Source of the DNA: a virus
Taxonomy: Duplodnaviria; Heunggongvirae; Uroviricota; Caudoviricetes
Length of the DNA: 13,194 bases
Virus record (IMG/VR): IMGVR_UViG_2740892230_000011
Direction: 5' to 3' (one strand)
How positions within the stretch are numbered: position 1 is the first letter of the stretch; every line of letters starts with the position of its first letter. A program made the translations under genes and the position numbers. Below the pieces are notes generated by a model. It saw only the letters and a program-made list of their open reading frames with translations. It had not been told where the DNA came from and searched no databases. Below, piece by piece: positions 72 to 7,830 of this stretch.

Positions 72-482
72 TTAGTGCGGAAATATTTGTGTAGTGTTCT
101 GAATGTTCTCAGTAAAGAGTAATGAATTATCAAAGGTATAGTAATACCTTTTGTTTTCGTGGATATTTGTAATCCATCTGAAAACCCCTGCTGTAGCAAG
201 ATTTTTCCTGTATTCGTAAAATGATAACTCTCCTGATTTGAATCCTTTTAAGGTGGCTTCTATAAGGCATTTATTTTTTGAAAATCTTACATTTACAACC
301 TTACCCTGTCCTTTTATTAAAACCGTATTATCGTTTTCAAGAACAAGATGAATATTCTCTGTAGCTAAATAGTAAATGTAATGTGAGACATTGTGACGTT
401 TTAGTTCAGAATAAAACCAGTGATAGTTTAAATTATTTCGCACTTTATCGAATATTTGTTTAAAAATGGCAACCTGAGCCAT
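72..482 (-). CDS. Hypothetical protein, about 136 aa; possibly DUF1398 family (YbcV/YdfO-like) prophage accessory protein
   Basis: Minus-strand ORF with stop at 72-74. I prefer the ATG at 482-480 (MAQVAIFKQ...) over the track start at 497 because GGAAGG sits 7 nt upstream of it. GC content is visibly lower than the head genes. Family assignment rests only on recalled synteny (DUF1398 and DUF3950 genes lie beside nohD/nohA in DLP12 and Qin) and on size. Confidence 0.6.
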
Positions 483-538
483 TGTAGTACCTTCCATGTG
501 ATATGAGGGGCGTAGTCTGCACGATTATCTAAATTGCT

Positions 539-772
539 TCAATCTGGTCTGATCTGTTTTCTGAGCAATTCAGTAATGTCACTCTTTTCTTTGTTTGCTT
601 CAGGAGAAACTCTTTTTTCTGAGCACAGTCTCCGGCGGCAGGCTTCAATGACCCAGGCTGAGAAATTCCCGGACCCTTTTTGATCAAGAGCGATGTTAAT
701 TTGTTCAATCATTTGGTTAGGAAAGCGGATGTTGCGGATTGTTGTTCTGCGGGTTCTGTTCTTTGATGACAT
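539..772 (-). CDS. Small 77-aa protein with ribbon-helix-helix-like N-terminal region; possibly DUF3950 family (YlcI/YnfO-like)
   Basis: Minus-strand ORF starting at ATG 772-770 (MSSKNRTRR...). The stretch RNIRFPNQMIEQINIALDQKGSGNFSAWVIEACRRRL fits a basic strand followed by two helices, typical of small RHH DNA binders. Sits 41 bp upstream of the 136-aa ORF on the same strand, so likely co-transcribed. Position immediately before cos/Nu1 matches ylcI-nohD and ynfO-nohA synteny as I recall it. Confidence 0.6.
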   Translation of the reverse strand: MSSKNRTRRTTIRNIRFPNQMIEQINIALDQKGSGNFSAWVIEACRRRLCSEKRVSPEANKEKSDITELLRKQIRPD

Positions 773-836
773 AATGTTGCCCCGTATTCAGTGTTGCTGA
801 TTTGTATTATCTGAAGTTGCTTTTACGCTAATTTGA

Positions 837-981
837 TGCAGATCAATTAATACGATACCTGCGTAATAATTGATTATTTCTCGTGGTTTGATGGCGTACA
901 CACATGTCGTGATAAACCTTATGTAGATGATAATTATTATCATTTTCGTGGGTCCTTTCCGGCGATCCGACAGGTTACGGG
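837..981. repeat. Diverged first copy of the cos-upstream flank (lambda right-end-like), truncated by an N-run before cosN
   Basis: tgcagatcaattaatacgatacctgcg...cctttccggcgatccgacaggttacggg is repeated with roughly 10% substitutions at 992-1130; this copy runs into the N-run 982-991. Confidence 0.65.
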
Positions 982-1621: not shown

Positions 1622-2262
1622 CTGAAGTTGCCAGGCATTTAAGTCTGACCGATCGCCAGCTTCGCAGATTGCAGAAATTGCCGGGTGCCCCGATATCGAA
1701 TAAGCGAGGGCAACTGGATCTGGATGCCTGGCGCGATTTTTACATATCGTATCTGAGGAGAAGTAAAAACGATGTGCCTGATGGCGATAGCGAAGACGAC
1801 TATGAGGAGAAATTGCTTATTGCCAGATGGGAACTGACAGCAGAACAGGCTGTTACACAGCAGTTAAAAAATGAGGTGTCAAAAGGAAAACTTATTGACA
1901 CCGGGTTCTGTATTTTTGCCCTCAGTAAGCTGGCAATGGNNNNNNNNNNAGAAAAGTTACTCATTGCCAGATGGAAGTTGATCGAAGAACAGGCAATCGC
2001 CCAGCAATTAAAAAATCAGGCGTCCGAAGGAAAGCTTATTGACACCGGATTCTGTATTTTTGCCCTCAGTAAGCTGGCAATGGCGTTATCCAGTACGCTT
2101 GATTCCATCCCTTTATCCATGCAGCGACAGTTTCCTGATTTAACACCGCGCCATCTTGACCATCTGAAAACCCTTATTGCTAAGGGGGCAAATCAGTGTG
2201 CGCGGGCAGGGGATAAATTACCGGATTTACTCGATGAATATATCAGAGCAACAACTGAATAA
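1622..2262 (+). CDS. Terminase small subunit, divergent Nu1 homologue; start codon masked by N-run, internal N-run with diverged duplication
   Basis: C-terminal half aligns with lambda Nu1 (TGFCIFALSKLAMALSSTLDSIPLSMQRQFPDL vs ETAFCTFVLSRIAGEIASILDGLPLSVQRRFPEL; ending LLDEYIRATTE vs LLSEYIEQSG). N-terminal region (EVARHLSLTDRQLRRLQKLPG...) is not lambda-like. The track start at 1552 is cosB sequence read in frame and is spurious. True length is about 185-190 aa once the duplicated segment across 1940-1949 is removed. Confidence 0.8.
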
Positions 2263-3474
2263 TATGATGGCTGCCGTTTCGGTTGCGCTGCAGCCTCTGG
2301 TCAGGGTTGTACCAATGACGGCAGTTGAATGGGCTGATCAAAATTATTATCTGCCTAAAGAATCCTCATACGGTGAGGGCGAATGGAAAACGCTGCCATT
2401 CCAGATCGCCATTATGAACTGTATGGGTAACGACCAGGTTCGCACGGTTAACCTGATTAAATCTGCCCGTGTTGGTTATACAAAGATGTTGCTGGGGGTG
2501 GTCGGGTATTTTATTGAGCATAAATCCCGAAACAGTCTGCTTTTTCAGCCCACGGATTCTGCCGCTGAAGATTTTATGAAGTCTCACGTGGAGGCGACGA
2601 TTCGGAACGTGCCATGCCTGAAAGACCTTTCCCCATGGCTGGGTCGTAAACATCGTGACAATACTCTCACGCTGAAACGCTTTTCATCGGGCGTCGGTTT
2701 CTGGTGCCTGGGCGGCGCTGCCGCCAAAAACTACCGTGAAAAATCCGTGGACGTGGTCTGCTATGACGAACTTTCCTCGTTCGAGCCGGATGTCGAAAAA
2801 GAGGGCTCGCCAACCCTGCTGGGGGATAAGCGTATTGAGGGGTCGGTGTGGCCAAAATCCATTCGCGGCTCGACGCCTAAAATCAAAGGCTCCTGCCAGA
2901 TCGAAAAAGCCGCTAACGAGTCGGCACACTTCATGCGTTTTTATGTGCCCTGTCCGCACTGTGGGGAGGAGCAGTATCTGAAATTTGGCGATGAGTCCAC
3001 GCCTTTTGGGCTTAAATGGGAGAAGGACAGCCCTGAAAGTGTTTTCTACCTCTGTGAACATCATGGCTGCGTGATCCATCAGTCTGAACTGGACCAGAGC
3101 AACGGGCGGTGGATCTGTGAAAACACGGGCATGTGGACCCGTGACGGTCTGACGTTTTTCAGCGCTGCGGGTAATGAAATTCCGCCGCCGCGCTCCATCA
3201 CTTTCCATATCTGGACGGCGTACAGTCCGTTCACCANNNNNNNNNNCCGGGGTGATGAAATTCCGCCGCCGCGCTCCATCACGTTCCATATCTGGACGGC
3301 GTACAGTCCGTTCACCACCTGGGTACAGATTGTCTATGACTGGCTGGATGCACTGAAAGATCCCAACGGCCTGAAAACCTTTGTGAACACCACGCTGGGC
3401 GAGACCTGGGAAGAGGCTGTGGGCGAAAAACTCGATCACCAGATACTGATGGATAAGGTTGTGCGTTACACGGC
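2234..3474 (+). CDS. Terminase large subunit homologue (gpA-like), N-terminal ~410 codons; 3' end cut by N-run, internal N-run at 3237-3246
   Basis: Starts MNISEQQLNNMM... at ATG 2234, overlapping the small-subunit stop as in lambda Nu1/A. Colinear with lambda gpA (TAVEWADQNYYLPKES, FWCLGG, KNYREKSVDV, LGDKRIEGSVWPKSIRGSTPK, CPHCGEEQYLKFGD, FHIWTAYSPFTTWVQIV, FVNTTLGETWE) but clearly diverged, most strongly in the first ~35 residues. The track start at 2177 is an upstream extension. Confidence 0.85.
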
Positions 3475-3484
3475 NNNNNNNNNN

Positions 3485-3603
3485 TCATAACTTAATGTTT
3501 TTATTTAAAATACCCTCTGAAAAGAAAGGAAGCGACAGGTGCTGAAAGCGAGCTTTTTGGCCTCTGTCGTTTCCTTTCTCTGTTTTTGTCCGTGGAATGA
3601 ACA
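3485..3603 (+). promoter_or_regulatory. cosB (lambda-type) terminase binding region upstream of Nu1; cosN is absent on this side of the N-run
   Basis: tcataacttaatgtttttatttaaaataccctctgaaaagaaaggaagcgacagg... matches the lambda left end from about 35 bp past cosN. R2-like gaaaggaagcga at 3524-3535 and R1 cgtttcctttct at 3568-3579. Confidence 0.85.

Positions 3604-4123: not shown

Positions 4124-4149
<26 letters not shown>
3604..4149 (+). CDS. nu1: Terminase small subunit Nu1 (181 aa)
   Basis: MEVNKKQLADIFGASIRTIQNWQEQGMPVLRGGGKGNEVLYDSAAVIKWYAERDAEIENEKLRRE... is essentially the lambda Nu1 sequence as I recall it; the 3' end overlaps the A start. Confidence 0.97.

Positions 4150-7830
<3,681 letters not shown>

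Follow-up and report, generated by a model that had tools for sequence, protein, structure and literature searches.

The two small genes just before cos in a lambda-family phage sequence of 13,194 nucleotides (the window) are real phage genes that have been catalogued previously, the homologues of K-12 ynfO and ydfO, and they are separable modules. A toxin-antitoxin relationship between them is not supported, because they are found separately no less often than as a pair. On balance we think it probable, with some reserve, that the locus carries two independent accessory genes, one encoding an RHH-type regulator and the other a partner-binding DUF1398 protein, downstream of an FNR-type leftward promoter. 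The pair is among the most widespread uncharacterised E. coli prophage genes, and phage lambda carries both. Since the genes are separable, the toxin-antitoxin reading is removed and each protein is to be studied on its own. Re-reading the published FNR and Fur sites offers an inexpensive and specific way to test under which conditions the two genes are expressed.

Gene calls and genomic setting

Both minus-strand ORFs that the initial annotation placed just before cos are present (Table 1). On sequence grounds they are genuine genes and not chance ORFs, since they match Pfam families with E-values of 3e-43 and 5e-21 and dN/dS is low in both; judged from codon comparisons, purifying selection acts on both. 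The earlier description had combined a 41-bp gap with a 136-aa product. Each figure is real, but they do not belong together: an alternative in-frame ATG at 497 in the ORF listing gives 141 aa (ORF 72-497) and the 41-bp gap, whereas ATG 482 gives 136 aa and a gap of 56 bp. ATG 482 is the better start, because GGAAGG sits 7 nt before it and RefSeq annotates the same 411-nt CDS. The AT-richness attributed to the distal gene was confirmed: its GC content (72-482) is 0.311, as against 0.432 in 539-772 and 0.559 across the terminase and head region.

Table 1. Genes and predicted sites in the cos-proximal part of the window
Feature	Position	Strand	Details
DUF1398 (YbcV/YdfO family) gene	72..482	minus	136 aa, 411 nt, 31% GC; ORF, Pfam and RefSeq call
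Intergenic spacer, 77-aa to 136-aa gene	483..538	minus	56 nt; terminator scan negative
Shine-Dalgarno-like GGAAGG	490..495	minus	7 nt 5' of ATG 482; read from sequence
DUF3950 (YlcI/YnfO family) gene	539..772	minus	77 aa; ORF, Pfam and NCBIfam
-10 hexamer GATAAT, predicted	806..811	minus	Leftward promoter of 77-aa gene; predicted TSS near 798-800
FNR/CRP-type palindrome TTGATGCAGATCAA, perfect	833..846		Centre 67 nt upstream of ATG 772
Fur 7-1-7 box TGATAATTATTATCA, perfect	928..942		Between cosQ and 77-aa gene
Left part of cos: cosQ and approach to cosN nick	950..981	plus	Sequence and alignment; 90% identical to lambda right end

Gene order in the window is lysis genes, pair, cos, Nu1 and A, with the pair seated between the lysis cassette and cos and transcribed against the late operon. 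We take GGGTCCT (950-956) to be cosQ and GTTACG/GG (974-981, the slash marking the nick) to be the cosN nick, by the lambda sequences. The ATG at 772 is ~207 bp from this lambda-type nick, and both are inside contig 1 (1-981), which stops at 981 in the approach to the nick. The window is built of 14 short contigs joined through 10-N spacers, so contig 1 is not physically proven to connect with the Nu1/A genes on its right; the order pair-cos-Nu1/A is universal in complete genomes. The location had been described as a prophage end. On the virion map it is the right end, and in a lambda-type prophage that end is internal. An Rfam search of 1-1700 gave nothing credible.

Known relatives of the locus

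The closest arrangement in K-12 is ynfO-ydfO of Qin (b4533-b1549), which has the same two families in the same order, on the same strand and with the same sizes (77 and 136 aa), adjoins the Nu1 homologue nohA at the position seen in the window, and carries the same upstream FNR and Fur boxes. DNA identity is 87% over 950 bp, and the spacer is 57 nt in Qin against 56 nt in the window. The two loci differ in that the window DUF1398 gene departs from YdfO at ~34 of 136 codons, the window ORFs are offset from each other by 1 nt in reading frame whereas those of Qin share a frame, and the -10-like hexamer GATAAT of the window is GACAAT in Qin.

Both families are also found at the right end of lambda, as lambdap78 and an unannotated 64-aa ORF at 48109-48303, and in DLP12, as ybcV-ybcW-ylcI beside the Nu1 homologue nohD; here too they are on the minus strand between bor/Rz and cos. 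The initial annotation was right that these families sit beside Nu1 homologues in DLP12 and Qin. The lambda/DLP12 DNA is 83% and 90% identical to the window in two flanking blocks, and in place of window positions 556-609 it holds ~610 bp, which supply a plus-strand gene (lambdap79/ybcW) and a different 14-aa tail on the DUF3950 protein. Because the plus-strand gene intervenes, the two genes are separate transcription units in lambda and DLP12.

Locus DNA was matched in 3798 of 5426 complete E. coli genomes (~70%), with the genes in up to 11 places per genome. Phages ev099, Kati and PhiR49_1 encode a DUF1398 protein 100% identical to the one in the window. E. coli ycgX, located beside bluR, is a DUF1398 gene whose product is 44-48% identical to the window protein, and it is likewise AT-rich; unlike the window gene, it is a stand-alone chromosomal gene with no DUF3950 partner, cos or terminase nearby.

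The 77-aa DUF3950 protein

The family memberships proposed in the initial annotation were borne out by the Pfam search and, in addition, by NCBIfam. The 77-aa protein scored 74.7 bits against PF13132 (cutoff 25) and 35.7 bits against NCBIfam YlcI_YnfO_N (NF041551; cutoff 30). No established function for either DUF3950 or DUF1398 was found in the searched literature, in line with the initial annotation. Residues 1-50 align as a conserved domain with an arginine-rich N-terminal arm, followed by a variable C-terminal tail. Relative to the Stx-phage copies, dN/dS over codons 1-50 is 0.03-0.13, and DNA homology to these copies runs exactly from the ATG through codon 47.

An RHH fold is plausible for this protein on the basis of modelling. 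The AF2 model, a weak one (pLDDT 61), has helices at 19-32 and 37-54 that flank a GSG turn; they follow an extended RNIRFP segment, and no beta strand is assigned in the monomer. For the RHH-like layout suggested previously, the fold and profile comparisons give no statistical support: the top Foldseek PDB matches, Arc (1par) and ParD2 (7r5a), are non-significant at E 5-8, and hhalign places RNIRFP on FNLRWP of Arc, the correct register, with a probability of 1.5%. BFVD matches include proteins named RHH, CopG and NikA, non-significant at E >1. A profile search of PDB sequences with the 77-aa family returned no matches, and none of the RHH Pfam families was matched at E up to 10 in a scan of 18 family members.

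The protein resembles the minimal RHH repressors (P22 Arc/Mnt, CopG, the ParD N-domain) in the size of its conserved domain (~50 aa), in an N-x-R-aromatic-P strand motif (RNIRFP, against FNLRWP in Arc) and in a Gly-containing turn predicted between the two helices, yet no sequence or structure match to them is statistically significant. Arc and Mnt are encoded in a phage late region, antisense to the late genes beside them, as is the 77-aa protein. Unlike the Arc/Mnt system, lambda-type phages have no ant-type target gene beside the 77-aa gene. An operator was sought, and the lambda-type and Stx-type upstream regions share no 8-10-mer. The conserved palindrome near cos, which is the Fur box and is missing from Stx-type loci, was rejected as an operator for the 77-aa protein.

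The 136-aa DUF1398 protein

The 136-aa protein matched Pfam PF07166 at 147 bits (cutoff 22) over profile positions 1-119 of 119, and PDB 2HH8 at a phmmer E of 1.4e-69 over residues 1-140. The latter is the NMR structure of the K-12 family member YdfO, a small soluble protein, and no signal peptide or membrane segment was found in the 136-aa sequence. Predicted secondary structure is alpha2-beta3, twice; the structure model of DUF1398 has a pLDDT of 51 and is too poor for fold comparison. Among homologues of 21-88% identity, L27 and T41 are the only invariant positions; Y35, N43, G84 and G99 come close to invariance. The gene has a dN/dS of 0.18-0.30, higher than that of its 77-aa neighbor, and is AT-richer than its flanks in all contexts sampled. 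The hairpin 3' of the stop codon is not significant (z -1.04).

The lambda copy was knocked down by CRISPRi without effect and is dispensable (PMC10695390). The ydfO gene is strongly induced by an ionic liquid and was scored 'essential only by TraDIS' in K-12, and ybcV mRNA is ~10-fold lower in a pdhR mutant. Overexpression of YdfO has been cited as a benefit under oxidative stress and not as toxic.

Occurrence of the two genes together and apart

The phage collection contains DUF3950 in 154 records versus DUF1398 in 43. In Stx phages DUF3950 occurs without DUF1398, between Rz and an unrelated HNH-TerS-TerL module. DUF1398 is found alone in Kluyvera, Salmonella and Raoultella. A scan with a four-sequence subset of an alignment of distant homologues covered 24 species-representative loci, and in all 24 YlcI was absent at distances up to 4 kb from DUF1398. 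As ycgX, a solitary DUF1398 gene occurs in 5067 of 5426 E. coli genomes (~93%). No significant match to PADLOC-DB 2.0 was obtained, the best E being 0.025 for both proteins and to unrelated models, and neither protein matched a toxin family; in Pfam the 136-aa protein is DUF1398 only. With record counts this unequal, each family found alone elsewhere and no toxin or defence match, the antitoxin-toxin or regulator-effector pair put forward in the initial annotation was not upheld.

Apparent DUF3950-DUF1398 fusion proteins (P0014, at 233 aa, and P0010) were rejected as gene-calling artefacts in which a TGA stop is read as Trp. When translated with table 11, none of the 6 contigs gives the fusion query protein.

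Regulatory sites upstream of the 77-aa gene

Class II FNR promoters were defined by TTGAT-N4-ATCAA ~41.5 bp 5' of the TSS and a -10 element ~30 nt from the site centre. On the minus strand, GATAAT in the window and the FNR-box centre are 29-34 nt apart, which is class II geometry, and we regard a leftward class II FNR-type promoter for the 77-aa gene as a candidate on that geometry. This candidate supersedes the earlier statement that no promoter could be identified in 773-836. A generic consensus sigma-70 scan gave no minus-strand promoter. The Fur box was defined as a 7-1-7 inverted repeat, TGATAATnATTATCA, and is matched perfectly at 928-942 and, in a second copy on an alternative contig, at 1076-1090. 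By chance, 0.02 matches to the FNR box and 0 to the Fur box are expected.

The FNR box is invariant in lambda, DLP12, Qin, ev099 and 78 of 78 viral loci, and the Fur box is found in 72 of the 78, each at fixed spacing; these loci come from IMG/VR scans that yielded only near-identical loci and were used just for spacing statistics. The counterpart of the -10 hexamer is GACAAT in lambda, DLP12 and the 78 viral loci as well. ATG-to-ATG spacing of the pair varies over 290-293 nt in the 78 loci, and the frame of one gene relative to the other therefore varies as well. Because no terminator was detected between the two genes, nor elsewhere on the minus strand, their co-transcription in the Qin-type arrangement is likely.

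Both boxes have been encountered experimentally in K-12. The K-12 copy of the FNR site is bound by FNR in ChIP-chip and EMSA (PMC1802558) and lies under a ChIP-seq peak (PMC3688515), while Fur shifted the Qin copy of the Fur box in gels and that copy was also recovered by in vivo selection for Fur-binding fragments (PMC2189734). The published studies assigned the FNR- and Fur-bound sites to nohA. A lacZ fusion directed toward nohA was weak and barely FNR-dependent, and only this rightward direction was assayed (Grainger et al., PMC1802558); Myers et al. (PMC3688515) reported no FNR-dependent expression change at the peak, which they attributed to nohA. It is possible, if doubtful, that the sites assigned to the packaging-gene remnants nohA and nohB control the divergent ynfO/ylcI, which were then unannotated, and in Qin-type phages ydfO in addition.

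Discussion

In the window, Qin and ev099 the 77-aa gene immediately precedes DUF1398 on one strand, the two being 56-57 nt apart with no terminator between them, and such an arrangement is what one might expect of a type II toxin-antitoxin-like or obligate regulator-effector pair in which the RHH protein neutralises and/or represses DUF1398. RHH antitoxins often have variable C-terminal tails, and the tail of the 77-aa protein is variable too; the ParD2 antitoxin is among its top fold matches, at non-significant scores. We nevertheless consider such a pair very improbable, given that the two genes are apart as often as together, that an opposite-strand gene intervenes in lambda and DLP12, where ybcV has its own regulatory region, that no toxin or defence family is matched, that ycgX stands alone in most E. 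coli genomes, that the lambda knockdown had no effect, and that the apparent fusions are artefacts; the benefit reported for YdfO overexpression also speaks against toxicity. Hardly credible at all is a virion structural role for DUF1398, which derives from database labels ('head protein' for PHROG 413, 'head protein' and 'putative envelope protein' in RefSeq/GenBank). The gene is oriented opposite to the late operon and lies before cos, is dispensable in lambda and exists as a stand-alone chromosomal gene, while its product lacks a signal peptide or membrane segment and has a small soluble homologue solved by NMR. This suggests that the labels are unfounded.

The 77-aa protein might instead be a packaging or late-operon accessory that binds cos-proximal DNA or the late transcripts running on from the lysis genes to the packaging genes, with DUF1398 as unrelated cargo. 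Its gene keeps the same place (after Rz, before the packaging genes, antisense) with lambda Nu1/A and with HNH-TerS-TerL, a member of the family has been reported in capsid-forming PICIs carrying TerS/TerL (PMC13612085), and the N-terminal arm is rich in arginine. We find this improbable, as the HNH gene separates the 77-aa gene from the likely cos in Stx phages, the upstream regions of the two contexts have no common motif, and the cryptic prophages DLP12 and Qin keep an intact copy though packaging nothing. DUF1398 as a stress-expressed lysogenic-conversion or superinfection-exclusion effector, binding a host or incoming-phage protein, is unlikely. Its orientation against the late operon, like that of bor, its AT-richness relative to the flanks in each sampled context, a dN/dS above its neighbor's, the ionic-liquid induction of ydfO, the stress resistance cited for it and the fall of ybcV mRNA in the pdhR mutant all fit such a role; the lack of a PADLOC match, the stand-alone chromosomal homologues in non-phage contexts and the failure to find a phage-resistance phenotype in the searched literature do not.

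The explanation we prefer is two independent lambda-family accessory genes in a Qin-type layout, rather than a dedicated pair. Residues ~1-50 of the 77-aa protein would most likely form a minimal Arc/Mnt-like RHH dimer, a small transcription factor that may contact DNA through the RNIRFP strand and the basic N-terminal arm, and the variable tail would be whatever sequence comes after the mosaic joint. The 136-aa protein is probably cytoplasmic, with an internally duplicated alpha2-beta3 unit, and most likely works by partner binding and not as an enzyme, because it has no invariant catalytic-type residues. Both genes probably share a transcript from a leftward promoter just inside cos, putatively composed of the FNR box at 833-846 and the -10 at 811-806, with the Fur box at 928-942 farther upstream. 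Expression in the lysogen would then answer to oxygen, and perhaps to iron.

Should the sites assigned to nohA and nohB indeed control ynfO/ylcI, which is possible but doubtful, lambda-family prophages, lambda included, would carry an oxygen/iron-responsive, lysogen-expressed unit that starts ~180 bp inside cos. Its first product would be an Arc-like repressor, retained where the lysis and packaging genes meet in phages whose terminases are unrelated. The position at this junction would hint at control of late-operon read-through, packaging or host genes in gut-like (anaerobic, iron-limited) conditions. In published expression data, ybcV and ybcW were up by log2 1.7 in microaerobic growth.

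Results

Identity and distribution of the two genes

Both genes of the first contig are uncharacterised, though already known and widespread. Over its full length the 136-aa protein matches DUF1398 (PF07166, E 3e-43), and E. coli YdfO, whose NMR structure is 2HH8, is a further match (E 1.4e-69). The 77-aa protein belongs to DUF3950 (PF13132, E 5e-21) and to NCBIfam YlcI_YnfO_N. These HMM matches confirm the families DUF3950 (YlcI/YnfO) and DUF1398 (YbcV/YdfO) that the initial annotation had named, and K-12 annotation bears out the place it gave them beside Nu1 homologues in the DLP12 and Qin prophages. The order is ybcV(-), ybcW(+), ylcI(-), nohD(+) in DLP12 and nohA, ynfO, ydfO in Qin, where ynfO and ydfO are 57 nt apart. 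The window has the Qin-type layout and is 87% identical to Qin at the DNA level over 950 bp. The two-gene DNA is contained in 3798 of 5426 complete E. coli genomes, at up to 11 places per genome, and the sequenced phages ev099, Kati, Chlobot and PhiR49_1 encode a DUF1398 protein 100% identical to that of the window.

Phage lambda likewise carries both genes, but has ~610 bp with plus-strand lambdap79/ybcW in place of window 556-609. Its YlcI/YnfO homologue is a 64-aa ORF at 48109-48303 (-) (2637-2831 of L001, the lambda J02459 locus) that is absent from the J02459 annotation. The lambda DUF1398 gene, lambdap78 (1570-2103 of L001), is annotated as a 177-aa ORF, 'putative envelope protein' ('head protein' in RefSeq). 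This ORF is probably annotated too long at the N-terminus, beginning 41 codons ahead of the conserved start MAQV.

Gene structure and position relative to cos

The window consists of 14 short contigs with 10-N spacers between them (982-991 and 12 further runs), and both genes are confined to the first (1-981). Adjacent contigs are diverged duplicates of one another, so that cos and gpA each occur twice (for example, 838-981 pairs with 992-1140, and 2177-3490 with 4124-6049); these look like alleles of several lambdoid prophages, collapsed or alternative, in one draft assembly.

Coordinates of features of the two-gene region
Feature	Position	Strand or direction	Basis or remark
77-aa ORF	539-772	-	ORF search
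141-aa ORF	72-497	-	ORF search; internal ATG at 482 gives 136 aa
Shine-Dalgarno GGAAGG	495-490	-	read from sequence, 7 nt before ATG 482
FNR/CRP-type palindrome TTGATGCAGATCAA	833-846		exact match; centre 67 nt from ATG 772
-10-like GATAAT (GACAAT elsewhere)	29-34 nt from TTGATGCAGATCAA centre	toward 77-aa gene
Fur 7-1-7 box TGATAATTATTATCA	928-942		perfect match; second copy at 1076-1090

The two minus-strand ORFs were recovered as initially described, although the 41-bp spacing given for them fits the 141-aa ORF. Because of the Shine-Dalgarno sequence before the internal ATG and the 411-nt form annotated by RefSeq in the closest genome, we place the DUF1398 gene at 72-482, and its 136-aa form leaves a spacer of 56 nt. 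The AT-richness noted for this distal gene was borne out, with a GC content of 0.311 versus 0.559 in the terminase and head region (0.432 for 539-772).

The description of the genes as immediately upstream of cos also holds, since the same contig extends across a lambda-type cosQ (GGGTCCT, 950-956) and ends 2 nt beyond the cosN nick (GTTACG/GG, 974-981). Their supposed location at the prophage end does not, as the gene region is internal in a lambda-type prophage. The full cohesive-end sequence lies at 1127-1138 on the following contigs, which carry genes with matches to Phage_Nu1, GpA and lambda portal. Downstream of cosN, 1200-1334 and 1345-1487 are two diverged copies of one segment with several CCGGACATG-like repeats, such as gaaccggacatgaac and gtaaaccggacatgaccgg; in this cos variant, these could be where the small terminase binds (cosB R-type sites).

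Selection and protein features

Both ORFs are real genes. Codons 1-50 of the 77-aa gene gave dN/dS of 0.03-0.13 against Stx-phage copies (dS 0.7-1.7), and the DUF1398 gene gave 0.18-0.30. The alignment shows free variation of the 77-aa protein past residue ~50, and DNA homology to the Stx-phage copies covers precisely the stretch from the ATG to codon 47, so selection acts on a domain of ~50 residues.

This domain has a basic arm at the N-terminus (MSSKNRTRRTT), an RNIRFP segment in extended form and two predicted helices (19-32 and 37-54) separated by a GSG turn, a layout resembling minimal Arc/Mnt-type ribbon-helix-helix (RHH) repressors. The features fit the RHH-like N-terminus first proposed, but no match to a known RHH protein was statistically significant: hhalign aligned RNIRFP with FNLRWP of Arc, and Arc, ParD2, CopG-like proteins and NikA were among the top fold matches, all below significance; nothing was retrieved by a profile search against PDB sequences. 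RHH is nonetheless the most likely fold, and quite probably the right one.

The DUF1398 protein has no signal peptide and a predicted alpha2-beta3 arrangement occurring twice (the structural model was of too low quality for folds to be compared), with a DN(T/S)(V/L)L motif common to both halves. Homologues of 21-88% identity share almost no invariant polar residues, so a binding protein would fit better than an enzyme. Nothing supports calling it a 'head protein' (PHROG 413, RefSeq) or an 'envelope protein'; silencing of the lambda gene was without effect (PMC10695390).

Discussion

Are the two genes a dedicated pair?

An antitoxin-toxin-like or regulator-effector pair had been proposed. Both genes are present in the window, Qin and lambda, but they often occur apart. 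By tblastn against the phage collection, 154 records contain the 77-aa protein and just 43 contain DUF1398; every record named as a Stx-converting phage has the former, and none has the latter. In Stx phages a lone DUF3950 gene, oriented against the late genes, is flanked by Rz and an HNH-TerS-TerL-capsid module whose terminase system is unrelated to lambda Nu1/A, and a DUF3950 gene is reported in capsid-forming PICIs (PMC13612085). Conversely, ycgX beside bluR is a stand-alone DUF1398 gene in 5067 of 5426 E. coli genomes, and a YlcI-like sequence was found within 4 kb of DUF1398 at none of 24 species-representative loci (Kluyvera, Pseudocitrobacter, Salmonella diarizonae, Raoultella, Escherichia). 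Neither protein matched defence-system or toxin models. Apparent DUF3950-DUF1398 fusion proteins in the database (P0014 and P0010, loci L190-L195) are artefacts of gene calls in which short metagenome contigs were translated with an alternative genetic code, so that a TGA stop was read as Trp. The ATG-to-ATG distance is 290-293 nt, and the relative frame differs between loci. YdfO overexpression is cited as protective rather than toxic. Given this separate occurrence, the lack of toxin or defence matches, the artefactual fusions, the varying frame, and the harmless silencing and protective overexpression, a toxin-antitoxin or obligate regulator-effector reading is not supported.

Proposed re-assignment of the FNR and Fur sites

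A generic sigma-70 scan found no minus-strand promoter, in agreement with the initial annotation, but an exact FNR-type palindrome and a GATAAT hexamer lie upstream of the 77-aa gene. Their spacing is that of a class II activator site and predicts a start near 798-800 and a leader of ~26 nt. The 200-bp stretch that separates the 77-aa gene from cos shows 92% identity across the window, lambda, DLP12, Qin and ev099, and the FNR palindrome and Fur box are kept in these four relatives; the TTGATGCAGATCAA site and its spacing are unchanged in 78 of 78 viral loci, and the TGATAATTATTATCA box is present in 72.

FNR binding to the K-12 copies is documented by ChIP-chip and EMSA (PMC1802558) and by ChIP-seq (PMC3688515). 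For Fur, there is a gel shift of the Qin copy and a fragment selected in vivo as Fur-binding (PMC2189734). In all of this work the sites were attributed to nohA/nohB. The sole reporter fusion, judged by its primer sequences, points to nohA, and was weak and barely FNR-dependent (PMC1802558). From the geometry, we infer that the FNR site would instead serve a leftward promoter of the divergent ynfO/ylcI gene. With the genes arranged as in Qin, the DUF1398 gene would be driven from it too, because the scan found no terminator between the two genes. Up-regulation of ybcV and ybcW in microaerobic growth lends weak support to a leftward FNR promoter; ybcV/ybcW expression is also PdhR-dependent, and ydfO is induced by ionic liquid. 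Attributing these published sites to the 77-aa gene, as proposed here, is the only point that is new, and modestly so.

Minor observations

At L162 (4001-4174; phage or PICI-like vB_KppS-Ant, a 16.5-kb induced element), tblastn gives a weak match to YlcI (38% identity, E 6e-5) on the strand opposite an annotated 975-nt ORF; the match is either chance or an unannotated small gene. K-12 ydfO is listed in the literature as 'essential only by TraDIS' despite belonging to a cryptic prophage; the entry may be an artefact of mapping or of AT-richness. Stand-alone DUF1398 paralogues lie near c-di-GMP-related or low-temperature genes: ycgX (L184 4001-4381) near bluR/bluF in E. coli, and the Kluyvera copy (L173 4001-4396), in a non-phage context, flanked by genes for a MASE4-GGDEF and a cold-shock-domain protein. 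Qin ydfO is followed by gnsB, ynfN and cspI, and the neighbours in E. coli, Kluyvera and Qin may hint at a common physiological context.
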